Positions 2,643 to 18,177 of a stretch of 20,000 nucleotides of DNA are shown one piece after another. The stretch spans positions 299,753 to 319,752 of the forward strand of contig JAHCIT010000005.1 of assembly GCA_026129095.1 (NCBI GenBank), in the 5' to 3' direction. Position 1 is the first letter of the stretch; each line of letters starts with the position of its first letter. The notes under the pieces are model-generated. The model saw only the letters and a program-made list of their open reading frames with translations. It was not told where the DNA came from and did no database searches. A program made the translations under genes and the position numbers. The stretch comes from Deltaproteobacteria bacterium. GTDB taxonomy: Bacteria; JAGRBM01; JAHCIT01.

Positions 2643-3236
2643 ATGAAAGTCACCACAGACAGCTCCGGTAGGCTCTTGCTCGAAGAAGGTCTGCCGGCGC
2701 TTCGCTGGTCCCTTGTTGCGGGTGCCGTAGGCCTGTCGGTCCATTGGGGGGGAGCGCTCAGCACCGGGACGGCAACGACACTAAACCTTCTCCTTGAAGG
2801 AGTTGCCGTCGGTTTTGTTCTTCTGTGCGGTCTTTTGGTTCAGGACTCTAGGTTTCAATTTGACCCGGTCCGGAAGGTCCTGAGCTGGGAGTCTCGACGT
2901 CTGATCGGAACGAAACAGGGACGGATGCCGTTCGATGGCATCCGGCACGTTGCTGTCTTGAAGCTGAGTCAGCGCGAGGGAAGTGCCGTCTCCACTTACT
3001 ATCAGGTCGTTCTGGTCACCGACGCATTGCAACTCCGGCTCGGCAGCCGGGACCTGGACGAAACGGAAGCACTTTTGCTCGCCGGATCGGTGCATAAAGT
3101 TCTCGGCATTGATGAACCGCCCCGCATCGCTGCGCCGGCAGAGGTGGTAGAGGCCGGCGTGAAGATCGACGCGATCAAAGCCCGGCGGACCGAGACGGGG
3201 GAAACATTGGAAGAGGCGAGCAAAGATCTGCAATGA
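2643..3236 (+). CDS. Hypothetical membrane protein (2 TM, PH-like beta region, L7/L12-CTD-like tail)
   Basis: Two hydrophobic helices followed by a beta-rich segment. The tail KIDAIKARRTETGETLEEASK resembles the ribosomal L7/L12 C-terminal motif. It lies 15 nt downstream of the sigma factor on the same strand. Confidence 0.65.
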   Translation: MKVTTDSSGRLLLEEGLPALRWSLVAGAVGLSVHWGGALSTGTATTLNLLLEGVAVGFVLLCGLLVQDSRFQFDPVRKVLSWESRRLIGTKQGRMPFDGIRHVAVLKLSQREGSAVSTYYQVVLVTDALQLRLGSRDLDETEALLLAGSVHKVLGIDEPPRIAAPAEVVEAGVKIDAIKARRTETGETLEEASKDLQ

Positions 3237-3393
3237 TGGCTGTTATTCATGATCGTCACGGACGACCAGCGCAAGCCGGACCTGTCCAACCCCGTGACAA
3301 ACTGACTTTTGCTAAATAGTATTTCAAAAGGTAGGAATGGCAGCGTAGCGATTACGAGTGATCCTAGGGGCGGTCGGCAATGCAGCCTGCTAA

Positions 3394-4668
3394 TTGATGG
3401 TCAAGATGAAGCCACGAGCAGCAGATTTCTACCGAATTAATCCGCCCGGCGTTTGTTCTCGCCGAAATAGATTAACTGCCGTCGATCTTTTTGCAGGCGC
3501 AGGCGGCATCTCGCTTGGGTTGATGAATTCTGGGTTCGATGTGCTTTTCGCGTCTGATATTTCCGGTCCGTGTATGGCGACGCATACGCTAAATCTTCCG
3601 AATATTAAATTCCAGCAAACCGATATCAGGTCTCTATCAGGCGCGAAAATATTGCGTCAGACTGGTTTAGGTCGGGGCGAGCTGGACCTATTGATTGGTG
3701 GGCCACCGTGCCAAGGTTTTAGTATCCTCGGACAACGTGTCCTTGAAGATCCTCGTAACCGCCTGTTTCAAGAGTTTGTTCGCATTGTTGGCGAACTGAA
3801 GCCCCGCGTCGCCGTGATCGAAAATGTCCCGGGCCTCGCTACCCTGAGCAAAGGTGTGCTTTTGAGTAGAATCGGGGCAGCCTTCGGAAGATTGGGTTAT
3901 CGTGTGGAATGCGCGGAGCTTTTAGCTGCCCAATATGGTGTTCCCCAGATGCGTTGGAGAATGTTTTTCGTCGCATGGCGGTCAGATTTCGGCCCGCGAA
4001 CTGCGGGTTTCCCCGTCCCAACTCATGGGCGATTGGGAATTGGTGATCTAGTCCCAAATCGAAAGATTACAGACGTCCAATCCAAAGGCTTCCTGTCAAT
4101 TTGGGATGCAATTAGTGATCTTCCGCCAATTGAGAGCGGCGAAGTCGGAACGATATATACGAATAAACCCAAATCGCCGTATCAAGTAGCCATGCGAGCA
4201 AACTGCAAACGCGCCGAATTGCACAATCACTATGCTCCAAAATTGTCACCCATAAATCTCCAGAGAATTCAGACGCTCCAACCCGGCCAAGACTGGCGAG
4301 ACTTACCACGAGAATTACTCCCTCCGGGGATGCAGCGCGCGCTACGAAAGGACCACACTCGTCGTTTTAGACGGATGAAGTGGGATGGCATTGCGCGCGC
4401 CATCATCACTAGATTTCGCGATCCCAAATCGGGGGAGTACATCCACCCCGACCAAACCCGCACGATAAGCATTCGGGAGGCTGCTCGTATTCAATCGTTT
4501 CCAGATTGGTTCGTGTTTGAAGGGAACTATACCGATCAGTACGATCAGATCGGGAATGCCGTTCCGCCACTATTGGCACGCGCTGTAGGAACTGAAATCC
4601 AACAGGCTCTTGCAGCAGCGAGTGTTGAGCGTATAGTGCCAAAATCACGATATAAAATTCCTGCGTGA
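3394..4668 (+). CDS. dcm: DNA (cytosine-5)-methyltransferase
   Basis: Motif I DLFAGAGG, IV GGPPCQGFS, VI ENVPG, VIII PQMRWR, IX REAARIQSFPD and X QIGNAVPP. The true start may be ATG 3397 or 3406. Confidence 0.97.
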   Translation: MMVKMKPRAADFYRINPPGVCSRRNRLTAVDLFAGAGGISLGLMNSGFDVLFASDISGPCMATHTLNLPNIKFQQTDIRSLSGAKILRQTGLGRGELDLLIGGPPCQGFSILGQRVLEDPRNRLFQEFVRIVGELKPRVAVIENVPGLATLSKGVLLSRIGAAFGRLGYRVECAELLAAQYGVPQMRWRMFFVAWRSDFGPRTAGFPVPTHGRLGIGDLVPNRKITDVQSKGFLSIWDAISDLPPIESGEVGTIYTNKPKSPYQVAMRANCKRAELHNHYAPKLSPINLQRIQTLQPGQDWRDLPRELLPPGMQRALRKDHTRRFRRMKWDGIARAIITRFRDPKSGEYIHPDQTRTISIREAARIQSFPDWFVFEGNYTDQYDQIGNAVPPLLARAVGTEIQQALAAASVERIVPKSRYKIPA

Positions 4669-5786
4669 TGAAGAAACCAAGCAAAGCCGCTCGTGGAAAT
4701 TATGTTAGCGAATGGTTCGGCCATCGCGTATTTCCGAATGTCGTAGCCGGGAAAAAGAGTTTGAAAGAGCAGCAAGCAGAGTCGTGCCCCTTCTTAACCG
4801 CTGCAATTGGTGAGGTCAGAACATGTATCAAAAGTAGTGCTGCGCGAGGTGTGTGCACGATCAACACTGCTACTAGTGGTACCAGAATGGATTGGCTGGT
4901 CTGCCCATACCGAGCTCTTGATCCGTCACTTCTTGAAAGTGCGGTCAGACGGCTATTCGGATTTCGCGAAAGCCAAGCTGTATATATCATTCCTGCCATT
5001 CGGTTAGAGGCAGAGAAAATCAGAGAAGAGATAGGCCAAAGGCTCCGATCAGGAGATCGGGTATTTATTTATTTTGACGAAAAACTAGGCGGCGAACTAA
5101 GTATACCCGCAACTGCGAAGTCGCCAGAGTTTTCCTTCGACGTCACAATAATCGAAATCGAATTATCAGATGGTCGGCCGCATGTTGGCCGTTTTGGCGT
5201 TATTGAAATTCAGACCATGGATTTCCACGGCTCATATAGAAAGGCCGTTGCTAATCTCAAGGACGCTCTTCGGCTGCACCCAAAAGATTTTGCTACATCA
5301 TTACAGACCAATCAAAACTGGTTGAGTGAGGATATTGAAGGTCCAAATATAGCCAATGTGTTTAAACGAACATTCTATCAAATGATGTTTAAGTTTCAGC
5401 TCGGTCAAAATCCACGTTGTGCAGGATGTGTCCTTGCCGTTCCACTGTCGGTTTGGGAAAGTTGGCAGCGTCACTTGGGACAACCAGAGCTGAGATCAGA
5501 GCCAGATGGGACATTCAGTCTGTTCCCAAGTGGTGGTGCCCGACCCCCCATTGTACCGGCTTGGATATACGTATTTGATATAAGTTCTATGAGTCGAACA
5601 TCGCCCAGCCCACTAGTAATTTCAAAGATTATTGCTACCGATGCGACATCTATTTCTCACTATGCACTTCAGGTCGCACCCGCAGCAGCATTAGAAAATA
5701 TAGCATCTGCAACGGGTATGTTGACGCTTTTGGCACGCCGTATAAGCAGGCTTTGGCCGGAGTTAGGTACAACGTTAACGGTGTGA
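4665..5786 (+). CDS. NotI-family type II restriction endonuclease
   Basis: EWFGHRVFP, Cys4 metal site (CPFL, CIK, GVC, VCPYR), KLGGELSI, SPEFSFD, EIQTMDFHGSY, EGPNIANVFKRTFYQM and CAG all match my recollection of R.NotI. The start overlaps the MTase stop (GTGA/TGATG). Confidence 0.92.
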   Translation: MMKKPSKAARGNYVSEWFGHRVFPNVVAGKKSLKEQQAESCPFLTAAIGEVRTCIKSSAARGVCTINTATSGTRMDWLVCPYRALDPSLLESAVRRLFGFRESQAVYIIPAIRLEAEKIREEIGQRLRSGDRVFIYFDEKLGGELSIPATAKSPEFSFDVTIIEIELSDGRPHVGRFGVIEIQTMDFHGSYRKAVANLKDALRLHPKDFATSLQTNQNWLSEDIEGPNIANVFKRTFYQMMFKFQLGQNPRCAGCVLAVPLSVWESWQRHLGQPELRSEPDGTFSLFPSGGARPPIVPAWIYVFDISSMSRTSPSPLVISKIIATDATSISHYALQVAPAAALENIASATGMLTLLARRISRLWPELGTTLTV

Positions 5787-6043
5787 GGATTCCTTCCGTA
5801 GCGAATTATTGCGGGGGGGGATGATGATTGACACGTCCAGCAGGACGGACCAATCGTACCAGATACGAGGATGAATCCATGATGGCCCGGGAACCCCAAA
5901 GGCATCTGGTTTGAGACTAGCCTTGGAGTGCACGGAATTGTCACGCGGTGTGCCATCTGGCGAAAACAGGATAATGCATTTGGGGTGTTGTAAAAATCGT
6001 ATGGATATTTAAAATACGAATGATAGGTGCCATACTTTCCCTA

Positions 6044-6311
6044 ATGGCGGGGAAGCTCGTGACACTTGTGGTCACCTTCGACCTGGATGAAGACGATGAT
6101 TACGACGATGCGTACAAGGTCTTAGCTAACTTCAATCTTGAGCCCGTAACCACGAAAAAAATTGCCATTGCCGAGCACTACAGTGATGGGGAAGGTAACT
6201 ATTGAAAATGCTGCTGCGGCTCGCGACGCAATTTTGGAGGTATTGAGGGCTGCCGGTTTGACCGTTAAACAAATCCTGGTTGTTGACGCAAACAAATGGG
6301 CCTCTAAATGA
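6044..6311 (+). pseudogene. Small GhoS/Cas2-like (ferredoxin-fold) protein, frameshifted at an A7 tract
   Basis: The first frame MAGKLVTLVVTFDLDEDDDYDDAYKVLANFNLEPVTTKK continues in the +1 frame after A7 (6155-6161) as LPLPSTTVMGKVTIENAAAARDAILEVLRAAGLTVKQILVVDANKWASK* (stop 6309-6311). The joined product is 88 aa. Confidence 0.55.
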
Positions 6312-6425
6312 ACCTGATCTCGGGCTGCTGACTGTGCTAAAACCGGTGCACACGCACGGCTGCTTTACATCAAGAGACACGCGGCGCCCTTCCAGACGAT
6401 CGCGCTGGAAGACCTATGACAGAGC

Positions 6426-7064
6426 CTAATGCAAAAATTCATTAAATTTGAAGATGAAATTTCCGACCGATGCGACTTTGCTTAAGGGTTCGAGCAGTCT
6501 TGAAATAATACCGGCGTCGGGCTTCGTCTTAGAGAACTGCCGTTCAATTTCATCCAAGTCGCCCAAATGCTCACGTCTCTCAACGTCGGTCAGATTTGCG
6601 TCACTGCTTAGAGCGTTCTTTGCGGCCCTAATTAGGGTGGCCAAAGTTTCTGAATCGACTGGACTGGGAAGGGTTTGGCTAATTGAGCTGTGCTTTCCCG
6701 TGAAAGCTATCTGGTTACTATTTCCATGCACGTTTACGACATTTACTTCGTGCTGGACATTATTGCCATCGTCGCTGCCGTCACGGTTTGATTCGACAAA
6801 CATTCGTCCCTTCCCGGTCAGTTCCGCGTGAACCATTCCCTTGGGAAGAAATAGGCATTTGGCTATGCCTTGATCTTGCAGAGCATGCCCAGCGTCGATG
6901 AACCATCCGGAATCTGGCACGTCTATATCGAGAGCTCCCGCAATTTCCGGAAGCGGATAGTAGTGTGAACCCTTCTCTTGATCGAGGAGATAAAGCTGCT
7001 CAACAAGTTGGTTGAAGAATTCTGTGAAGGTAACCCGTGCCATAGAAGTTTTTTCCTGCGTCAT
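6426..7064 (-). CDS. Hypothetical protein (N-terminal winged-helix-like domain, N/V/G-rich linker, C-terminal helical bundle)
   Basis: 212-aa ORF. ALQDQGIA...AELTGKGRMFVE is a typical wHTH wing signature, and the C-terminus is amphipathic helical. Confidence 0.7.
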   Translation of the reverse strand: MTQEKTSMARVTFTEFFNQLVEQLYLLDQEKGSHYYPLPEIAGALDIDVPDSGWFIDAGHALQDQGIAKCLFLPKGMVHAELTGKGRMFVESNRDGSDDGNNVQHEVNVVNVHGNSNQIAFTGKHSSISQTLPSPVDSETLATLIRAAKNALSSDANLTDVERREHLGDLDEIERQFSKTKPDAGIISRLLEPLSKVASVGNFIFKFNEFLH

Positions 7065-7184
7065 ACACCTGAAATCCAGTTATTCGAGTTTCGAAGCTGA
7101 ACTGTCCCAGATTACAAGATTGCTGATGGAGCCTCTATATTTCCCCATAATATCACATGGTTATATTTTTTATTTTTCGTACCC

Positions 7185-7212
7185 TTGACGTTTTTTGAGC
7201 GATAGCCATTTT
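7185..7212 (+). promoter_or_regulatory. Possible sigma-70 promoter for the MBL/E2-E1-JAB operon
   Basis: TTGACG at 7185-7190, preceded by a T-rich UP-like tract. The -10 (CATTTT at 16-nt spacing) is weak. Confidence 0.3.
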
Positions 7213-7370
7213 AAGCAATGAGGGCTTTGGGGCTAAATCATTTGGTTTGGCCGACGTTGTGTTTTGGGAAGGCGTGAGCCTCAAAGACTTCATTCTTCGA
7301 TCTCTTTTCGGCAACTCCTTTCCAGAATGGCACGATGTTGAATGCTGAAGTGGCATTTAAGGGAGTTACC

Positions 7371-8474
7371 GTGACCTCCGAAGACTTGTATCCGAAAAGC
7401 AATGTAATGCGTGTCCTTTTTCTGTACGTTGGGCAGGGAGAGGCAACCCTTTTTCTCGTACCTGACGGCCTTGGTGGACACATCTCCATGCTTGTGGACT
7501 GCAACTATTCGCCGTCACTCAACGGAATCGACCTGCCATGCTTTTTAGCGGATACGCTCCCTAAGAATTCCAAGGGCAGACCGGTTCTCGACTTGTTCGT
7601 TAATACGCACCCTCATTCGGATCATCTTGGTGGCCTCAAAGCTCTACGGCAGGCCATAGAGATTCAGAACGTCTGGCACAGCGGTCATAATCCTGGCCGG
7701 GAACACGGTGATGCCTATAAAGAGCTGCAAACCCTGATGAAAGAAGTGGAAGACCGAAAGGGAAAGGTTGAAGAACTTCAGGGATCCCGGACGGCGGTCA
7801 AATTCGGAGCCGCTGAAGTTCATATCCTGGCGCCAGCCGAATACGTGAAAGATGAAATCGCCGACGAAAAGGCCGAAACACGCTATCAGCGTATACATGA
7901 GCATTGTGCGGTGCTTCGGGTAAGATACGGCTCCGCCGGCAAAAAAGTAGGTGTCCTGGTGACCGGGGATGCCGATAAAGCCGCATGGGAAAATCACATC
8001 ACCGATTACCACGGTGCAAAAGAAGAGAACCGGCTAAAATCGGAAATACTTAGTGCTTCCCACCACGGGTCCAGAACGTTTTTCAAAACGGATGAGGACG
8101 ATGACAAGCCGTACACCAAACATCTCGATTACATCCAGCCAGAACGCTTGGTAATTTCCGCGCCGGCCCAGAAGGACAGTCCTCACGATCATCCGCACGA
8201 TGATGCTCTTGAACTTTATCAAACATACATCGAAACGGACTGCATTCACCATATGGGAGCCGGGCGTTGGTCATTTCAACTCGATGTTGATGACAAAGGG
8301 GATTACGAACTTGAAGAGGACCGAGGTAAAATTGCGGATGAATACCCGGCTTCGGATGATGATGAAAAATCAGACAAAGGCGGCGGCAGTGGCGGCACAA
8401 AAGCTACCATCGCCAGCACGCCCATCAGCCGTGTCGGCAAAACCCATCCAATGGGGATGCCAAGCGAGCGGTAA
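7371..8474 (+). CDS. ComEC/Rec2-like metallo-beta-lactamase-fold hydrolase (putative nuclease effector)
   Basis: VGQGEA, LVDC, THPHSDHLGG (HxHxDH), TGDA, SHHGS, ISA and HPH. GTG 7371 follows the RBS AAGGGAG (track start is 7335). There are no TM segments. Confidence 0.92.
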   Translation: MTSEDLYPKSNVMRVLFLYVGQGEATLFLVPDGLGGHISMLVDCNYSPSLNGIDLPCFLADTLPKNSKGRPVLDLFVNTHPHSDHLGGLKALRQAIEIQNVWHSGHNPGREHGDAYKELQTLMKEVEDRKGKVEELQGSRTAVKFGAAEVHILAPAEYVKDEIADEKAETRYQRIHEHCAVLRVRYGSAGKKVGVLVTGDADKAAWENHITDYHGAKEENRLKSEILSASHHGSRTFFKTDEDDDKPYTKHLDYIQPERLVISAPAQKDSPHDHPHDDALELYQTYIETDCIHHMGAGRWSFQLDVDDKGDYELEEDRGKIADEYPASDDDEKSDKGGGSGGTKATIASTPISRVGKTHPMGMPSER

Positions 8475-10861
8475 TGTTCCCAGGCATTCCATGGTTCGTT
8501 GAGCATCCTGATCTGTATCGATCGGAGGCTAGTGAACTTCGAGAAAAGTTCCCCGAAATGACGGAGATGCCGGAACCGGATATTTCGGGGCGTGTCTACT
8601 TCTATGGCGCTTTGAAATTCCACTCCGGACGAACGACAACTTCCGTCAATATCGTTTTGTATTATCCAGCCGATTTTCCGTATTCGTCGCCCGCTGTTAT
8701 CCCGGTAGAAAAATTGCCCCACGAGTTGGGGCAAGAAGCACCGCTTCTGCTTGATCGCTCGAATATCCGTTTCTTTTCCGCCCGTCACCAAATGGCTAGC
8801 GGAATGATTTGTCTTTACGAAGCAGATGGCCGCCCTTGGCACCATCTTGCCGTGACGGGTGTTGAAGCACTCCACAGGGCCAGGAAATGGCTACGTCACG
8901 CAATACGAGGGCAATTCCCTAGCGATCTCGATGGCGATCATGCAGAACTCTCAGAACATTACCAGGCAACTGGTGACGTATTGGTCGGCCCGGCAATGCA
9001 TCGAACTAATCTAGGGGCTCCGAAGCGGTTCCTAGCCGTTCAACTTCGACCTAAGCAGCAACTATTCGCGGTAACTCATGTCCAATATGAACACGGATGG
9101 GCAGATGATCGAGCCGTCTTTAATAGACTAATGCCTGAAGCATTTGGGAACGAGCAGTGGTGGGATTCCGCAGGGACGACAGAAAATCTGGATATTTTGC
9201 GGGTGAAACCGGACTGTCTGGTCGGCGAGTGCTACCCCATTTCCGGGGAGCCTCGGCCATATCGATCAGCTTCCGAATTCGCCCAAACGCTATATCCGGA
9301 AAAGGGCGCCGCAGCCATTGAAGCTCTTCAAGAAAAATATGCTGTTGAGCGGACCTGCCGGGAAAAGGTGGTATTGCCTATTCAATATCCAGGCAGGGCA
9401 GGCAGTTGGGAATGGCTATTTATCGAATTGCAAATAAAAAACACTGCTCCTGAACGAATCAAAGCTCCCACAGGGGAGATGGTCCCTCTCTTAGATTTAA
9501 GTCCTTCATCCCGAACAGCACTCGCTACTGCTGTCCCAACAGTATTACGCCAACATGATTTACAGCGCAGAAGTTTGGAGCTTCGCAATGGTGGCCGAGC
9601 CCAGCCGGACATTAATAACTGGACGGTATCGCTATTTGGAGCCGGAGCCATCGGCTCCGAAACGGGCGTGCTTCTTGCCAAAGCGGGAATCGGGAAACTG
9701 AAGATATGGGACAACCAAATCCTTTCAGCCGGGAATACCATTAGGCATCTATCCGGGCTCTTTGGTGTCGGGTTTCCCAAGGCGTCGCTGACGGAACTGA
9801 TGGTTAAGCAGCACAATCCGCATTGTGAGGTGGCGTCAACTTTTGGGGATGCCCTCGATGCGATAACGAGAAACCCGAATGATGCATGGGGATCCAATGC
9901 GACTATCAGCACCATCGCCGATGATGGTGTCGAGTTGCGGTTGAATAAGCTGGCAGTATCGAGCGGCAAGACGGTTTACTATTTGCGCGCCCTCAGGTCC
10001 GGTTCGGTAGGTCAACTGCTGCGGGCTATACCTGGCAGTGGTGCGTGTCTGGAATGTCTGGCGCATTATCTGCAAGATGAGACGCCGGATCCAAAATCGT
10101 TCCCAATGGATGAAATCCCCGGAGAAATTGTCGCTCGTGAATGCGGTAGACCCATACTTGCGGCAAGTGCAATGGATCTTACGACCGTAGCGGCATTTGG
10201 CAGCAGACTTATTCTTGGCGATCTGGCGCAACCGTCTGAAAACAATTTATGGGTTTGGACGACCGATGGTATCCCAGGACATTCGGAACTGGCCAAGCCA
10301 TTTTCGATGGCCTCGTCGTTTTTACCTCCGCACCCAGCATGTTCAGTGTGCCGCCCCAAGGCGATTGGCAATGTTCATTTTCCAAAGGACGTTCAAGCTC
10401 GAATGATAGATTTGGCTCGGCAACATGAGCCGAACGAGACGGGCGGTATGCTTATCGGCTATCGGAAGGGACAGGACGTATTTGTTCTGGAGGCAAGTGA
10501 CGCGGGACCAAAGGCCACCAGCATGCCGTCACGGTTTGAGAGAGATGGGGGTTACAGTGAAACGTATCTAATGGATGCCGTGCGGCGGAATGGCAACGGT
10601 ATTGATTATGTCGGTGATTGGCACAGTCACCCCGGATATCCGGCAGTTCCTAGCCCAAGGGACGCGGTTTCTATGCATGATATTGCGGCAGATCCGGGAT
10701 ACCGTACCGATTACCCGATAATGGCGATAGTCGGCCTGCCCGATAGCGGGAAATCGGGTGATCCTGAATTCACCTGTTACTGCTTTCCCAAGGGGAGCAG
10801 TAGTTACAGCGTCGGTGTGAGGATCACCGATTCTGCTCCAGTATCACGAACAGGCGATTAA
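8474..10861 (+). CDS. E2-E1(ThiF)-JAB fusion, ubiquitin-like conjugation/deconjugation enzyme (Cap2+Cap3-like)
   Basis: E2: YPADFPYSSP...HQMASGMICLY. E1: GAGAIGS, D...GNTIRH...K, Zn pairs CLEC and CSVC, candidate catalytic ECG. JAB: ETGG...GDWHSHPG...PSPRD. TAATG coupling to the MBL gene. Confidence 0.92.
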   Translation: MFPGIPWFVEHPDLYRSEASELREKFPEMTEMPEPDISGRVYFYGALKFHSGRTTTSVNIVLYYPADFPYSSPAVIPVEKLPHELGQEAPLLLDRSNIRFFSARHQMASGMICLYEADGRPWHHLAVTGVEALHRARKWLRHAIRGQFPSDLDGDHAELSEHYQATGDVLVGPAMHRTNLGAPKRFLAVQLRPKQQLFAVTHVQYEHGWADDRAVFNRLMPEAFGNEQWWDSAGTTENLDILRVKPDCLVGECYPISGEPRPYRSASEFAQTLYPEKGAAAIEALQEKYAVERTCREKVVLPIQYPGRAGSWEWLFIELQIKNTAPERIKAPTGEMVPLLDLSPSSRTALATAVPTVLRQHDLQRRSLELRNGGRAQPDINNWTVSLFGAGAIGSETGVLLAKAGIGKLKIWDNQILSAGNTIRHLSGLFGVGFPKASLTELMVKQHNPHCEVASTFGDALDAITRNPNDAWGSNATISTIADDGVELRLNKLAVSSGKTVYYLRALRSGSVGQLLRAIPGSGACLECLAHYLQDETPDPKSFPMDEIPGEIVARECGRPILAASAMDLTTVAAFGSRLILGDLAQPSENNLWVWTTDGIPGHSELAKPFSMASSFLPPHPACSVCRPKAIGNVHFPKDVQARMIDLARQHEPNETGGMLIGYRKGQDVFVLEASDAGPKATSMPSRFERDGGYSETYLMDAVRRNGNGIDYVGDWHSHPGYPAVPSPRDAVSMHDIAADPGYRTDYPIMAIVGLPDSGKSGDPEFTCYCFPKGSSSYSVGVRITDSAPVSRTGD

Positions 10862-11496
10862 CTGGTTGGAAGATTTAGGAATTGGACAAAAAGTTCGCGG
10901 GCGTAATAGCAGCCGAAACGATGCATTCGGGCTAGAGCTATCGCAACTAGTACCCCGAAAAACAACACAGGCCTCCAGCTTCCTGGCCCCTTCTCCCATA
11001 ACAACAGGGCGGCCACGACCAATAAACTGGCGGCGATTCCACGGCACAGACCATAGTTGCCATTGAATCGTTCGATTCGCTCTAGTCGATTAGCCGCGCC
11101 AATTGCCGCATGTATCTGCCGGGTAATCGGCGTCCATTCGGCTGCCGCAATTTTGGATAATTCGACCGGTTCATTTCGGCCGAGTAATTTCTGGAGTCGT
11201 GTTTCGAGTAATCGCTGCTGATCGGGGCTTATCAAGTTCCCACGACCGGAAATAACCCAGTCGGTAGGCATTCCTTTGAAGATTTTCCAATGTAACGTTT
11301 CAAGCCTATTTCCTATGAACTGAACCAAATGGCCAGCGGCGTACGAAAGAATGATAAATACCCCAAGATCACCAAACGACGCTCCCGATGCTTTCGCTAT
11401 CAGGGAGATCGATGGATAGATCAACGATGCGCCGAATATAGTGATTGCGCCTGGCGCTAAAATGCCCGCGAATTCGTAAAAGTCGAATTGCTTCAC
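10858..11496 (-). CDS. Hypothetical membrane protein (2+2 TM helices)
   Basis: 212 aa with two N-terminal and two C-terminal hydrophobic helices around a soluble loop. Its stop shares TTAA with the convergent E2-E1-JAB stop. Confidence 0.8.
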   Translation of the reverse strand: MKQFDFYEFAGILAPGAITIFGASLIYPSISLIAKASGASFGDLGVFIILSYAAGHLVQFIGNRLETLHWKIFKGMPTDWVISGRGNLISPDQQRLLETRLQKLLGRNEPVELSKIAAAEWTPITRQIHAAIGAANRLERIERFNGNYGLCRGIAASLLVVAALLLWEKGPGSWRPVLFFGVLVAIALARMHRFGCYYARELFVQFLNLPTS

Positions 11497-11861
11497 GTTT
11501 GTGCATCCTCAAAGCGTATCTTTGGACAGGTTTTCCGCTTACGCAACTTTAGCCCGCTCACATTCCCCTTTCGGGTAGAAGGATAAAAAGAGATTCGAAC
11601 CGTTGGGACATTTAAGCCCTCAGACTCCGGCATAGTGCCCCAGCCCCTATCGCTTTTTGCGCCGGGGACCGGGATAAAACCGTCCACATAAACATAACCA
11701 GTGATACAAGAACTACCTAACCCCAGTAACTAACTAGCAATAACCCACATATCTAAAATCTCTTGGTCATTTTGCCCCTACCCCCTAATGTGGCGGGATT
11801 GTGCGCCAACCTTAACCGAGTAAAATGCAGACCTGAGACATGGCAAGGAGCCAATAGTTAT

Positions 11862-12380
11862 ATGAGCACGAAACCAAAGACCGATGAGACGAAAGAGAGC
11901 CTGTCCCGCAATGAGGGCAAATGGACCCCAAAGCTGATGGCAGCAGGGTGGGTCGCAATTCCAGCGGTAATCATTGAGCAACAGGCGAAATTGCAGCTCA
12001 GTCCGACCGACATGAATATCATTCTGTTTCTCGCATCCAAGTGGTGGGAGAAAGAAAAACTGCCGTTTCCCAGCAAGAAACATATCGCGGAAAGTATCGG
12101 TATCGACGCGAAGACGGTTCAGCGCAGGATCAGCCAGCTCGAAAAGGTCGGCTATCTGAAACGCCATATTCGTCAACGGGCCGACAAGAGCTTCAAGTCG
12201 AACATGTATTCGTTCGATGGGCTCATCGAAAAAAGCACTCCTCTTGCCATTGAAGCTGTGAAAGAGCGCGCAAAGAAGCGGCAAGAGCGGGAGAGCAATC
12301 TCATCAAGCAGGCCAAAAGACGTCCGAGCGCGGCGCACCTGAAAATGGTTAAGGACGCCGACGAAGAAGAAGCCGATTGA
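11862..12380 (+). CDS. Winged helix-turn-helix protein (HTH_36 / DnaD-N / replication-initiator-like)
   Basis: GWVAIP...LSPTDMNIIL...PFPSKKHIAESIGIDAKTVQRRISQLEKVGYLKR...SNMYSFDGL. ATG 11862 follows AAGGAG (track start is 11763). Confidence 0.85.
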   Translation: MSTKPKTDETKESLSRNEGKWTPKLMAAGWVAIPAVIIEQQAKLQLSPTDMNIILFLASKWWEKEKLPFPSKKHIAESIGIDAKTVQRRISQLEKVGYLKRHIRQRADKSFKSNMYSFDGLIEKSTPLAIEAVKERAKKRQERESNLIKQAKRRPSAAHLKMVKDADEEEAD

Positions 12381-12742
12381 CGCGGTGCCGTGGAGGCCGG
12401 TCGCATTCGACGAGTGGCCCGAGGTCTGAATAAAACAGGGCAGTTCCAGAAGCTAGCAGAAACCACTATGGCGGTGTGAAACGCCAAGGTGATTTCGACA
12501 TGAAAAGCAGCGGTGCTTTCAAGTTAGCTCAGGAGACCGAAGGAAAAAAGCCTTGGACCTGCCAGCAAGGGGCAGGAGATTTCGGAAGGGGTACGACCGG
12601 CCTCCTCAGCGCCGCTTCCACATACGAATCGTTGCTTGGGTAAATACATGCGAAGTTCGTCTTTATGGCATGCGAGCGAGGACATGCCTTGAATCGTGTC
12701 GCCAATACGACGAGCGTGTATTTTCATTTGGAGAGCGATTCG

Positions 12743-13633
12743 TCATGGCCGCTCGTACCAGTCAGGATGATCGATAAAACCAAGGCCGCTCCTGTCGGGT
12801 TGAGGGTATGTCGAATAGATCAAGACGGCACGCAGCCCTTGGCACTGTTGAAAGACATAGGCCGAATCAAAAGCAACACGTTTATCGATCCCGGATATTA
12901 GCGGAAAGGCAATCATCGTGAAGCGTTGAATATCCACGGCTACCGTGAAATTCCCGCTTGCGCCTTTCTTCCAGACGTCCTCAAATTTGTCGTTCCATTT
13001 CCGGCAGACGCGATTTTCCAGGGTTTTGCGCTGTTCATGCAGTCGAGGGTTGAAAAAGACGGGGGTGCCATCACGTGGGATCTGCTCTCCACCCTGAGAC
13101 GGATCAAGAGCACACGTAAGATCAATCAAATATTCCTTTGTCTCTTTGACAACTTTGAGGTCAGCATCTTTACCGTTGCCGAGAGGCACTTCCGTATCTG
13201 CGAGTTCACCGCGAGAGTCGAAGAAGCGCATGAGGAATAACTCCGAAACGGTACTTAGCCCTTCCGGATTGGTCATGGTCCCAATGCTCAGAAGCTTTGT
13301 GGCAGGCCGCGAGATATCCAATACCTTACGAAGTATTCGTATTGAACGATTCGCTTCGTTTACGAACGCCAATGCAAAACGGTCGAGATGGGAATCCGCG
13401 AAACGTGGATCACCCCTCTCGATCGCCTCGATCACTGCCAAGAATCGTGGAATCGTATTGACACGGTCGTCGGGTTGAAGTGTCCACCACCTCCGAAACT
13501 GCTTCGACTGAAAATGATCTCGCAGTAAATCGGGTGTTACCACGCTGGCGAATTCGGCGAATCTCCGTAATCCGGCAAAAGCCAACAACTGGAATTGGGG
13601 CAGGTCGGATTCTGTGTAGATTAATGCGGGCAT
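12743..13633 (-). CDS. Hypothetical protein, possible PD-(D/E)XK nuclease-like fold
   Basis: 296-aa ORF. STVSEL...EVPLGNGKDADLKV...YLIDLT resembles the E...D...(D/E)xK/T arrangement of restriction-endonuclease-like domains. Confidence 0.6.
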   Translation of the reverse strand: MPALIYTESDLPQFQLLAFAGLRRFAEFASVVTPDLLRDHFQSKQFRRWWTLQPDDRVNTIPRFLAVIEAIERGDPRFADSHLDRFALAFVNEANRSIRILRKVLDISRPATKLLSIGTMTNPEGLSTVSELFLMRFFDSRGELADTEVPLGNGKDADLKVVKETKEYLIDLTCALDPSQGGEQIPRDGTPVFFNPRLHEQRKTLENRVCRKWNDKFEDVWKKGASGNFTVAVDIQRFTMIAFPLISGIDKRVAFDSAYVFQQCQGLRAVLIYSTYPQPDRSGLGFIDHPDWYERP

Positions 13634-13813
13634 ATTGAAATCTAATCGTAGAATATAATTTTTCCATCCGGTCGGTCACGAAGCTAGTTAGAGAGTGTGG
13701 ATGACCCAGTTGTGCTAACCTGACCGGGCAAGTTCACCTGCACCAACAGGGAGTATGCCATTATGGATCCAGACGATATTGAATGTAACCTGCCTCTAAA
13801 CGCCAGATGACAA

Positions 13814-15751
13814 GTGCTGTCTGAACGAACCTCAAAACTTATTGAGGGGTGGGCGCGCACCTCCTACGATTCGTTCCGCATCCAGCAACCACAAATTGTG
13901 GTTGACGGCTTGTGGAAGCATGGCGACCGCTTTCTAATTTATTGCCCTAGTCTTGCCTCCGAAGCCACTTCCCGGAGTGGCAAACCGATCCGAGAATGGT
14001 TTGACCAAGAGTGCAGAGCGATCACGTGCCCGGTGGCTATTGTCCCCAGGCTTCCAATTGGTGCGCGCCGTCTTGCCGACAGAACTATTGCGGAAATAGG
14101 TCGCCTAACGGGTGAACCGATTACCCGAGCAGTTTTACAGAACGAAATCGACCTACAGGTTCCTGATTCATTTCCCGATTACTATACGGAAAGCGGCCCC
14201 GGCAGCGTAACGATACATGTTAGCCGAGAGCTTTCTCCCGAGGAGCAAGCTTGTCTTAGCCAATATCTAGAATCACAAGGCGGCGATTTTAAGATCATGG
14301 TCGAAACCCCTGAACGTGTTTCGGCGGCAATGGAAGATGAATCGCGCGCTGAGCAAAATATATCCAATATATTGCCGAAGCACGATCTAATTCTCCTACC
14401 AGCTCGAAAGTTACCCAAAAATCTTCCCGGCAACGTCAAGGATACATATGAAACCGACCAGGAGTTCTGGCTAGATCATAGGGATCGGATATGGTCAGAT
14501 CCGACATTTTCCGTCAATGACGTGTTACCGCCGACGTGGAACGAATCTTCTTCTAAAGGATTTGTAGACGCCTCAGTCTTTCCAGCATCCGATATTCGCA
14601 ACTATTTATCGCTATACGATGTGACATGCATCGCGCCGCCGTTAGACCGTGTGGTGTCAAAAGATGACGGCCTTGGACTTGGCGAGGACGAACTGGTCGA
14701 GTTGATGAAACTTGGCAGAGTCAGGTTGGTCTTTCCGCAATCACTGGACCGCTATTCGCCTTCATTGTTGGCGAAAGCTGCCGCCATAGCCCCTCAGGGT
14801 ATTCTATTTTCCCGACGGCTTGCCGCTGCGAGCATCTGCGACGTCCGGCGACGCGTTCCATTGCTATATCCTGCGTTCGATATTACTGAAAAAAGAAAAG
14901 TGATCCAGTTCCTGGATGTTCTTGCGACTAATGCAGCGTCTCCGCACGGAAAGAAACTTTGGAAAGCATTCGGCGACGGGCTTATCGAGTCATGGCATGG
15001 CCCGGAATATTCGATTCATCTTCGTGGCGCAGTGGGAACGCTCTCTTTTGGCTTTGGCACGATCATCGCCCGGGTCCAGCAAGAGTTCACAGGCCGAGAT
15101 CTTCGGTTGGAGATGTGGAGTTTCGGCTCGGCAGTTGAATGGGCCGGGGCCTTGGGGGCCGCGTTGAACGCACCGCCATCGAACGCGAACGGATACGATC
15201 AGGCTCCCTTGATGGAGCTACTTGCTCATTCATACAGCGGTGTGGTCTCTGACGCGGTACCGGTATTTTCGACCGAGCCCAACGTGATTGTTCCTGAACT
15301 GCTGACCATTTCGAAAGCGGTTCCCGCCGTCGAATTCGCGACCTCATTTATGAGCAGCGATATCAACCGATTTCGCTCACTTGTAAAGAATATGGCGGGC
15401 GCAGTAGTTACGCCGAAAGAACTTCACGCGGTTGTTGAAAAATATAATGCATCAATATCCGCATACGATAAGAACATGGAGCGTTGGTCGAGATGGGGAA
15501 TGAAAGGTCTTGTTTACGGCGGCGCACTCGCGGCGGCTGGCCCTTCGGGTCCAGCATGGGGGTTATTTCTCGATTGGCTCATTGAAGTGATCGAAAATCA
15601 CTTCGGAGAGAAGAGAATCGAAGTGCCGCCGCTTGATAGCATACTGGACTATTGCAAGGTCATTATGGGTCTGTCCGAACGTGGCGCTGTACTGGTATCC
15701 CGTATGCGGAATGACCTCAACAAGAAGCACGAACTTACCCGGTCCGCCTAG
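13814..15751 (+). CDS. Large hypothetical protein (645 aa)
   Basis: Long uninterrupted ORF with globular composition and no recognised catalytic motif. The start is uncertain. Confidence 0.8.
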   Translation: MLSERTSKLIEGWARTSYDSFRIQQPQIVVDGLWKHGDRFLIYCPSLASEATSRSGKPIREWFDQECRAITCPVAIVPRLPIGARRLADRTIAEIGRLTGEPITRAVLQNEIDLQVPDSFPDYYTESGPGSVTIHVSRELSPEEQACLSQYLESQGGDFKIMVETPERVSAAMEDESRAEQNISNILPKHDLILLPARKLPKNLPGNVKDTYETDQEFWLDHRDRIWSDPTFSVNDVLPPTWNESSSKGFVDASVFPASDIRNYLSLYDVTCIAPPLDRVVSKDDGLGLGEDELVELMKLGRVRLVFPQSLDRYSPSLLAKAAAIAPQGILFSRRLAAASICDVRRRVPLLYPAFDITEKRKVIQFLDVLATNAASPHGKKLWKAFGDGLIESWHGPEYSIHLRGAVGTLSFGFGTIIARVQQEFTGRDLRLEMWSFGSAVEWAGALGAALNAPPSNANGYDQAPLMELLAHSYSGVVSDAVPVFSTEPNVIVPELLTISKAVPAVEFATSFMSSDINRFRSLVKNMAGAVVTPKELHAVVEKYNASISAYDKNMERWSRWGMKGLVYGGALAAAGPSGPAWGLFLDWLIEVIENHFGEKRIEVPPLDSILDYCKVIMGLSERGAVLVSRMRNDLNKKHELTRSA

Positions 15752-16845: not shown

Positions 16846-18177
16846 CTATTTTCTTGCAGACCGGCATTCAGCTCGCAACATCTTATATCTAATCACGCCG
16901 GTGGCGGGCTCGATTTCAATGCTCCACCCGTTGTCGAGCAGATCCTCATGTGCGTCACGGAACGCTTCCTCAAGATCCTGAATATCGCAAAAACCCGGGG
17001 ATCTCAGGTATCTACTGGCGGCCAATCTGAACGCGTTGCGAAATTGGCCAGTAGTTCCGCGGAATACGACGGTCGATGGGTAACTGAAACAATCGAATGA
17101 TAGGGTTTTAGCCCCTTCAGAGGAAACTGCAGAGTCCAGCACAAGCTCGATCCCGAATTCCTCTTCAAATGCCACAATGGATTTGGCCTCGGCCAAGAGG
17201 TCCCGCAACGCGTTCAGAAGAACCGTCACAAAGCGGCTGCCAGTGCCATGGCGCGTTGTAATGCGGGAACGGGTAGGCACCATCAATCGCCTAATTACCA
17301 ATGCACTGCGGAGTCCGTCAGGCGTATTCAGCCGGGCGAGTTCATCCATCAGCATGTCCCGATATCGGGCAAGTTCGGGAGGACCAGACGATTCGATTCG
17401 CCCAGTTAGCATTTCCGTTTCCAGGAACGAACAGAATACATTCACGAGTTTTCTACCGGCCGGCGTGTCATCAAGCTGTTTCAGATACCGGGAGATGCAT
17501 TTTCGGCCATTATCCTGTTGTTTCTCGACGAGATAGACCTTGGCCATTCCAAGCAGACAGGTCGCGTCTCCAAGCCGGGCACCTTCCTTGAAATATTCCA
17601 ATGCCTTTTCGGGATTTTTCTTGTCCCATCCAATCTCAAACAGCCGAAGCCGATTGATCTCGATGAGCCGCCCAAGCTCGATCCTGCCGAGCCGTTCATA
17701 AGCCGACGGCGATCCCAGCTTTGCCGCTTTCTCGTAGCAATCGAGTGCGGCTTTACGGTCTTCCAGCTCACCATTAAGCCCTTTGAGGAAATTGTCGCCG
17801 TCAGAAACGAGCCCGTCCGCAAGCGACTCCTTGTTCTGAATGGTATCCGGGTTCTTTAGTGAGCCGGGAGGTTCGGATGCTTCCGGTTCTGCGTGGATTT
17901 CCAGTATGCAGTCGATAGCGACAACAGGCGGGGTCTCGAATAACTCTTTGCGCTTATGATGACGGGGTGCGCGCTGGTCCAGCAGATCATGGACCTTTCG
18001 TTCGGCGGTAATGCTGTCACGGAATTTACGGTAGAAGACGACATACCATCTGCCGGGTGTTCCGGTTGCTGAAGAGATCTGTTCGGCGCGCTCGTCGGGC
18101 TCGTTTGACGTTCTCCCGACCTTGACCAGTTCGGGAACGGCCGGATTGAACAGAACGTAGACAAAACCGGCAGCCAT
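16846..18177 (-). CDS. GIY-YIG (T5orf172/MUG113-type) nuclease-domain protein with Sel1-like repeats
   Basis: GFVYVLFNPAVPELVKVGRT...ERAEQISSATGTP...AERKVH...KELF. Sel1-like units ALDCYEKAAKLGSPSAYERLG and KALEYFKEGARLGDATCLLGMAKVY. RBS GAGGAG lies upstream. Confidence 0.88.
   Translation of the reverse strand: MAAGFVYVLFNPAVPELVKVGRTSNEPDERAEQISSATGTPGRWYVVFYRKFRDSITAERKVHDLLDQRAPRHHKRKELFETPPVVAIDCILEIHAEPEASEPPGSLKNPDTIQNKESLADGLVSDGDNFLKGLNGELEDRKAALDCYEKAAKLGSPSAYERLGRIELGRLIEINRLRLFEIGWDKKNPEKALEYFKEGARLGDATCLLGMAKVYLVEKQQDNGRKCISRYLKQLDDTPAGRKLVNVFCSFLETEMLTGRIESSGPPELARYRDMLMDELARLNTPDGLRSALVIRRLMVPTRSRITTRHGTGSRFVTVLLNALRDLLAEAKSIVAFEEEFGIELVLDSAVSSEGAKTLSFDCFSYPSTVVFRGTTGQFRNAFRLAASRYLRSPGFCDIQDLEEAFRDAHEDLLDNGWSIEIEPATGVIRYKMLRAECRSARK

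Follow-up and report, generated by a model that had tools for sequence, protein, structure and literature searches.

In the divergent 6A-MBL pair encoded in the 20,000-nucleotide stretch of DNA analyzed here (the window), the MBL-fold enzyme itself probably takes the part of a ubiquitin-like substrate: its last five residues (MPSER) would be trimmed, the glycine in front of them (Gly374) would be adenylated, and the enzyme would be ligated to a target via the E1 and E2 domains of the protein encoded next to it. The reading of the MBL tail as a conjugation tag is supported by the comparison of homologous sequences and by analogy with known systems. The features concerned are as follows (positions are those of the window):

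7335–8474, + strand: MBL-fold enzyme gene (379-aa ORF from ATG 7335; Pfam Lactamase_B)
8349–8423, + strand: acidic, Gly-Ser-rich linker predicted to be disordered, residues 339–363, ASDDDEKSDKGGGSGGTKATIASTP (pLDDT; linkers of homologues)
8424–8456, + strand: tail motif ISRVGKTHPMG, residues 364–374 (conserved in homologues)
8457–8471, + strand: five-residue extension MPSER after Gly374, a putative pro-peptide (ORF translation)
8474–10861, + strand: E2-E1-JAB triple fusion, 795 aa (Pfam, PADLOC, NCBIfam)
10858–11496, − strand: 212-aa membrane protein (its gene running towards that of the ligase, the 3' ends overlapping by 4 nt)

The MBL-Fold Enzyme and Its Ligase Partner

Operon type 6a was described by Iyer, Burroughs and Aravind (2006) as an MBL-fold protein encoded beside an E2-E1-JAB triple fusion, usually in two genes. 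The window shows this architecture, its MBL gene being adjacent to a single E2-E1-JAB gene. Both proteins score below the NCBIfam equivalog cut-offs, yet the corresponding families are the best-scoring ones for each of them, namely 6A-MBL_enzyme (NF058524; 79.8 bits against a cut-off of 220) for the MBL protein and 6A-MBL_cap2_3 (NF058523; 137.1 bits against 320) for the ligase. By its architecture only, the pair is a member of the 6A-MBL system, and because of these scores it is assigned to a divergent clade.

An AAGGGAG site of the Shine–Dalgarno type precedes GTG 7371 within the MBL ORF, and the database copy of the protein (P0001) comprises 367 aa; for both reasons, this GTG is probably the true start, giving a protein of 367 aa. 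The residue numbers used here are those of the 379-aa ORF, and the choice of start leaves the tail unaffected. The HxHxDH motif is present as HPHSDH (residues 92–97), with H92, H94, D96 and H97 being invariant among the 51 sequences of alignment A1. The AlphaFold2 model obtained with the same alignment reached a mean pLDDT of 87.9 and is confident for the fold up to approximately residue 340. In Foldseek it matched best a ComEC structure, that of the beta-lactamase-like domain (9ic4, E 2.7e-19), followed by phosphorylcholine esterase and then by enzymes of the RNase Z/ELAC and RNase J types; at the sequence level, the profile of alignment A1 also matched the MBL domains of ComEC in the PDB. 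Because of the ComEC-like fold, the profile match and the invariant HxHxDH motif, the MBL protein is probably a phosphodiesterase, a nuclease being likely. It resembles the C-terminal MBL domain of ComEC, the DNA uptake nuclease, in fold and profile, with the HxHxDH motif intact, but differs from it in being soluble and stand-alone, in the absence of the competence channel domains and in its putative conjugation tail.

The MBL ORF ends in ...ADEYPASDDDEKSDKGGGSGGTKATIASTPISRVGKTHPMGMPSER. Mean pLDDT values of 55, 44 and 36 were obtained for the successive blocks of residues 341–370 in the AlphaFold2 model, and the tail is predicted to be disordered because pLDDT falls below 50 in segments 344–346, 352–371 and 373–379. 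Gly374, the candidate residue for activation by E1, is encoded by GGG at 8454–8456. The MBL gene stops with TAA (8472–8474), whose final base is at the same time the first of the ligase gene's ATG (8474), which results in an overlap of 1 nt. The initial annotation had described an acidic, Gly-Ser-rich disordered tail behind the MBL fold, ending in ...THPMG followed by MPSER, with the glycine codon at 8454–8456, and a ligase-fused JAB domain. The tail and its coordinates were borne out, its disorder and composition agree with the model and with the linkers of homologues, and the fusion was confirmed by Pfam matches to both ThiF and Prok-JAB in the single 795-aa ORF.

Within this ligase, ThiF spans residues 373–544 and Prok-JAB residues 637–755, and the PADLOC models for the CBASS-derived E1-E2 and JAB proteins match as well. 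Catalytic residues were examined in alignment A2, comprising 26 sequences, in which all of the following positions are invariant: H105 and C113 (codon 8810–8812) of the E2-like domain (approximately residues 1–170); G389xG391xxG394, D413, R424, K436 and D483 of the E1 adenylation domain (approximately residues 356–630), together with its zinc cysteines C525, C528, C623 and C626 and with C557 (codon 10142–10144); and E655, H717, H719, S727 and D730 of the JAB domain, corresponding to the motif HxHx7Sx2D. As far as can be judged from these residues, the E2, E1 and JAB activities all look intact. The AlphaFold2 model of the ligase, built from alignment A2, reached a pLDDT of 86.4, and its top Foldseek match was Cap2 from the Cap2-CdnD02 complex of Enterobacter cloacae (7to3_A, E 1.3e-23, 655 aligned columns), followed by UBA5, Atg7, ThiF and MccB.

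Conservation of the C-Terminal Tail

The initial annotation had made its reading depend on a glycine conserved at or near the C-terminus of homologous MBL proteins, and such a residue was found. At E 0.001 or better, the homologue search with the MBL protein retrieved 908 sequences, and the tails of the best 120 of these 908 were counted, the protein of the window included; these counts, like those for loci given below, are phylogenetically non-independent. An M-G pair is located within the last 32 residues in 113 of the best 120. When these 113 tails are anchored on the glycine, methionine precedes it in all 113, proline occupies position −2 in 101, arginine or lysine position −3 in 106, and isoleucine or valine position −10 in 84; a stretch of the type hydrophobic-S/T-R-[VI]-[ED] stands upstream of [RK]-P-M-G. 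In alignment A1, M373 and G374 are conserved at 90% or more. Between fold and motif, the linker differs in sequence from one homologue to the next and comprises 16 to 36 residues among the 51 aligned homologues, with mean contents of 18% D/E and 42% G/S/N/T.

Among the seven of the best 120 homologues that do not carry the motif, three (P0070, P0075 and P0112) look truncated or out of frame, one (P0086) ends in ...RPMA plus four residues, two (P0082 and P0109) have G or A at the end with other motifs before it, and the ending of the last (P0081) is unclear. A search of a library clustered at 50% identity gave 2189 matches at E 0.001 or better; many of the distant full-length relatives among the best 150 of these 2189, which were inspected, end in an aromatic residue followed by G or A.

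Within the 113 motif-bearing proteins, the glycine forms the exact C-terminus in 34 and is subterminal in 79. For these 79 extended proteins, again from the best 120 of 908, extensions of one, two, three and four residues were counted in 8, 51, 10 and 3 homologues, respectively, and those of five, six, eight, ten and twenty residues in 2, 1, 2, 1 and 1. Extensions of at least five residues are thus restricted to 7 of the 113, and the window with its five residues is placed at the long end of the range. In sequence, the extensions (1 to 20 residues) are unconserved, and proline was found as their first residue in none of the 79. Judging from these tails, the window's protein appears to belong to a clade of several hundred proteins in which the glycine is more often capped than free.

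Tail Motif and Ligase Architecture across Loci

To relate the tail to its genomic neighbors, 80 loci from reference genomes were classified by MBL tail and downstream genes, four of them having a cut or broken MBL gene. The motif [RKQHE]x-M-G/A was detected in 57 of the 80 loci, at the very end of the protein in 19 and with an extension in 38. A ligase-like match follows directly downstream in all 57, as a single full-length frame in 53 and as a partial or split ligase in the other four (L004, which lies at a contig end, L005, L049 and L061).

Separate genes for E2-E1 (approximately 620 aa) and JAB (approximately 170–290 aa) were found in 10 of the 80 loci, with ThiF, Prok-E2_B and Prok-JAB being confirmed by Pfam on five of these ten. 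The MBL tails of these split-ligase loci are devoid of P-M-G, and nine of the ten end exactly in G or A (...RRYG, ...RKFG, ...SRFG, ...REYA, ...RYA, ...SKTA or ...SPTA), the tenth ending in ...GRSAY. The nine tails ending in G or A (L024, L025, L050, L053, L057, L062, L072, L075 and L077) carry no extension.

In five loci with enough downstream sequence (L033, L034, L052, L065 and L067), neither E1 nor JAB was detected by BLASTP, and Pfam found no ThiF or JAB in the downstream ORFs of L033, L034, L052 and L065. None of the five carries the tail motif; four end in a ...KPY[FY]-like sequence and one in ...GKWA. The tails of L065 and L067 (Gracilibacteria, read with table 11) may be wrong should TGA encode an amino acid there. 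Across the loci compared, the last conserved residue of the tail would accordingly seem to be small wherever a ligase is nearby, and the motif before this residue seems to change with the type of ligase. Capping of the glycine, in turn, appears to be tied to the fused-JAB architecture, an extension being present in 37 of 55 fused-JAB loci versus 0 of 9 loci whose JAB is separate (Fisher p ~2e-4, uncorrected for relatedness).

The same junctions offer another explanation for the extension. In 47 of the 57 motif-bearing loci, the distance between the stop codon of the MBL gene and the start of a frame of at least 450 residues is at most 5 nt, the overlap being 1 nt, as in the window, in 23 and 4 nt in 13 of the 57. 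The tail could therefore be a conjugation tag on which MPSER has no role of its own and merely results from the overlapping genes, the ribosome-binding and start signals of the ligase being contained in the last MBL codons; the residues would then be removed by any carboxy- or endopeptidase, or would simply make conjugation poor. The lack of conservation among the extensions, their predominant length of two residues (51 of 79) and the closest homologue (P0002, 64% identity), which stops exactly at ...SRPMG, are in line with such an origin. However, extensions occur in 79 of 113 homologues, from which it follows that the removal route must be general; a JAB domain is part of the same polypeptide as E1, and cutting after the last residue of a tag has precedent in Cap3 and Bil. 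Together with the confinement of extensions to loci with a fused JAB, this makes the explanation rather unlikely as a whole. As regards the origin of the extension alone, the tight gene junctions suggest that it may be a by-product and not a regulatory pro-peptide.

The possibility that MPSER is a frameshift artefact was considered separately and rejected, as the TAATG junction and the N-terminus of the ligase (MFPGIPWF...) align with those of the homologues.

Predicted Interaction of the Tail with the Ligase

The complex of the MBL tail (residues 335–374) with the whole ligase, ATP and Mg was predicted with a score of 0.60, the best of three controls scoring 0.00. Of 157 solved complexes, 116 attain the mark applied in this procedure, as do 2 of 215 mismatched pairs; scores of 0.60 or less were obtained for only 18 of those 157 solved complexes and for both passing mismatches. 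The runs shared at least 78% of contacts, with a partner pLDDT of at least 51, and the positions of the contacts are not part of the output. The pass may be due to memory, because a like complex (Cap2-CdnD) has already been solved, and the prediction is weak support for binding of the tail by the ligase.

Weak support for binding at an unspecified site would also suit a tail that acts as a non-covalent docking peptide, for inhibition or recruitment, while the ligase conjugates something else. Against this, no other candidate substrate is at hand: the operon, which according to Iyer et al. (2006) usually has two genes, contains no ubiquitin-like ORF; across clades, G or A stands at the end of the tail, which points to chemistry at the C-terminus; and neither the cysteines of E1 and E2 nor the residues of the ATP site vary among the 26 sequences. 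Docking in place of conjugation is considered very unlikely. Even less probable is an acidic linker and tail serving as an autoinhibitory plug or DNA mimic, with a JAB cut between PMG and M activating the nuclease and no ligation taking place, since the acid-rich linkers of the homologues and a reported trypsin-MBL module activated through proteolysis are outweighed by a cut that frees only five residues, by the lack of anything removable in 34 of the 113 homologues, by a tail that the model leaves undocked from the fold (pLDDT below 50), and by a conserved E1 and E2 that would be left without a role.

Proposed Mechanism

The conjugation of the MBL enzyme through its own tail is the reading preferred here. 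Because no ubiquitin-like gene is present, yet the catalytic residues of E2, E1 and JAB are invariant, a substrate whose free C-terminal residue is small would be needed, and the MBL protein could be this substrate. In the proposed course of events, the linker of approximately 25 residues would present the tail ...ISRVGKTHPMG to the ligase. A free carboxylate on Gly374 requires the removal of MPSER, so the cap would have to come off before any E1 chemistry, and as the glycine is usually subterminal in the clade, trimming should precede activation in general. The cut after Gly374 would most likely be made by the JAB domain of the partner, which in its fusion to E1 is, by analogy, the obvious candidate for this step. 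The E1 domain would then adenylate the freed carboxylate of Gly374, and the MBL enzyme would be passed on as a thioester, to C557 of E1 and subsequently to C113 of E2, before being ligated to an amine on some target; this ligation could be reversed by the JAB domain of the ligase. By analogy with type II CBASS, conjugation might prime or localize the MBL enzyme for defence. Precursors of ubiquitin and Atg8 carry residues past the reactive glycine, which are trimmed by the pathway's own peptidase.

A hidden ubiquitin-like gene was also considered and rejected, there being no candidate among the window ORFs listed; in the scan for families, no ubiquitin-like family was matched by the window ORFs covered (ORFs of less than 150 aa outside positions 3000–14000 were left out).

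Relation to Known Conjugation Systems

The closest comparison is provided by type II CBASS. According to the Ledvina 2022 preprint, the extreme C-terminus of the cyclase is found in the adenylation site of Cap2 as an AMP conjugate, the exchange G436E abolishes defence, and in a cGAS-GFP fusion the Cap3 cut falls exactly behind the cyclase's last residue. Jenson (2023) adds that CD-NTases have Gly/Ala as their last residue only where Cap2 and Cap3 belong to the operon, and that other residues at the end of the cyclase abolish the formation of thioester and conjugate. The background on which the initial annotation had drawn, i.e., a Gly/Ala tail adenylated by Cap2 and a JAB cut after this residue, is in agreement with both sources. 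The window resembles type II CBASS in that Cap2 is the best structural match of its ligase and that the substrate would be an enzyme whose disordered tail has a small residue at its end. It differs in that the functions of Cap2 and Cap3 are fused in one protein; moreover, the Gly/Ala of type II CBASS is the true C-terminus (Jenson 2023), whereas it is masked in 79 of the 113 motif-bearing proteins (best 120 of 908) of the window's clade. Because the CBASS residue is terminal from the outset, trimming does not belong to the normal CBASS cycle, which counts against the mechanism proposed here. In a Pfam scan of 17 window ORFs, extended to PADLOC for 9 of them, neither a CD-NTase nor a cyclic-nucleotide effector was detected.

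With the Bil systems (BilABCD), the scheme proposed for the MBL protein shares a precursor trimmed by JAB: according to the Chambers 2023 preprint, JAB exposes the C-terminal glycine of the Ubl and also cleaves conjugates. Unlike in Bil, no beta-grasp Ubl was found among the window ORFs scanned, the tail being borne by an enzyme of 340 residues instead.

With 6A-MBL systems, the window shares the two-gene unit of MBL and E2-E1-JAB, the sporadic distribution and the defence-like neighbors, and it differs from them by scores far below the cut-offs, by the five residues past the glycine of the tail and by the conserved membrane protein alongside. Papers citing van den Berg et al. (2024) use the name 6A-MBL for the system and attribute to that work the demonstration of its anti-phage activity in Pseudomonas aeruginosa, and one preprint counts 6A-MBL among the defences against jumbo phages. 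Because both scores are so far below the cut-offs, the results from Pseudomonas may not be transferable to the window. Type II CBASS, Pycsar and MBL pathways were stated by Ye et al. (2024) to conjugate their enzymes. MBL is mentioned neither in the Ledvina 2022 preprint nor by Gong (2024). The 6A-MBL system and the idea of enzyme conjugation are thus already in print, and the addition made here is a divergent clade with a usually capped glycine; no description of such capping in 6A-MBL was found in the literature searched, this literature excluding van den Berg (2024), the final Ledvina (2023) article and their supplements.

Genomic Context and Distribution

The 212-aa membrane protein encoded convergently to the ligase gene had no match in Pfam or PADLOC. 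Of the 80 related loci, 32 contain homologues of it, in most cases immediately ahead of the MBL gene or immediately behind the ligase gene and on the same strand, and it may be one of the system's targets or its third component. A more far-reaching version of the conjugation reading would make the fused JAB both eraser and obligatory maturase in this clade, with the MBL protein being made as a capped pro-nuclease and the membrane protein of approximately 200 aa serving as acceptor or anchor that tethers the nuclease at the membrane. This combination is regarded as quite unlikely; if it were true, a single domain would control when conjugation begins and when it is reversed, and the nuclease would sit where phage DNA enters.

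A sister clade of MBL proteins occurs without E1, E2 and JAB (L033:4992–7414, L034:4965–7339, L065:4956–7316, L067:4968–7328 and L069:4974–6804). Its tails end in ...KPY[FY]xxxx and not in glycine, and the MBL gene is followed by that of a conserved protein of approximately 250 aa, which carries a SEC-C motif in L033. The family of the 212-aa membrane protein is represented beside the MBL gene in L034, L065, L067 and, weakly, L033, and was not found in L069. The ligase-less sister clade possibly constitutes a different, undescribed module with another partner.

Positions 3394–5786 (+ strand), just before the 6A-MBL genes, hold two overlapping ORFs: one encodes a C5 cytosine DNA methylase (Pfam DNA_methylase, 1.8e-63), and for the other, of 373 aa, only a weak PADLOC match to a type II restriction enzyme was obtained; the two likely form a restriction-modification pair. 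Further ORFs with no or weak family matches surround the operon at 6426–7064 (− strand), 12743–13633 (− strand), 13814–15751 (+ strand) and 16846–18177 (− strand), comprising a 212-aa ORF with a weak PDC-M14B match, 296-aa and 645-aa ORFs without a match, and a T5orf172/Sel1-repeat protein. An HTH/DnaD_N protein is encoded at 11763–12380. The surroundings of the operon, located at the end of a contig of 319,752 bases, look like a defence island or a mobile element, the methylase/restriction, PDC-M14B, T5orf172 and HTH/DnaD_N neighbors fitting such an assignment. In a scan of positions 7000–11600 for promoters and terminators, sites were no commoner than in shuffled sequences.

Among the genomes of six species of the window's phylum, the MBL gene was found in one, the window's own, the other five genomes being 83–99% complete, and this distribution suggests horizontal acquisition of the gene. 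A search of the six genomes with NF058524 at E 1e-20 yielded no match, and the control genomes gave no match either.

Implications for 6A-MBL Systems

The comparison lends further support to the notion that, in bacteria, what Cap2-type ligases use as tags are whole enzymes and not ubiquitin-like domains, and it indicates one large 6A-MBL clade in which the reactive glycine is usually capped. Without representing a new kind of system, the capped glycine would provide a handle for separating the roles of JAB as maturase and as eraser, and for finding the targets of the MBL enzyme.
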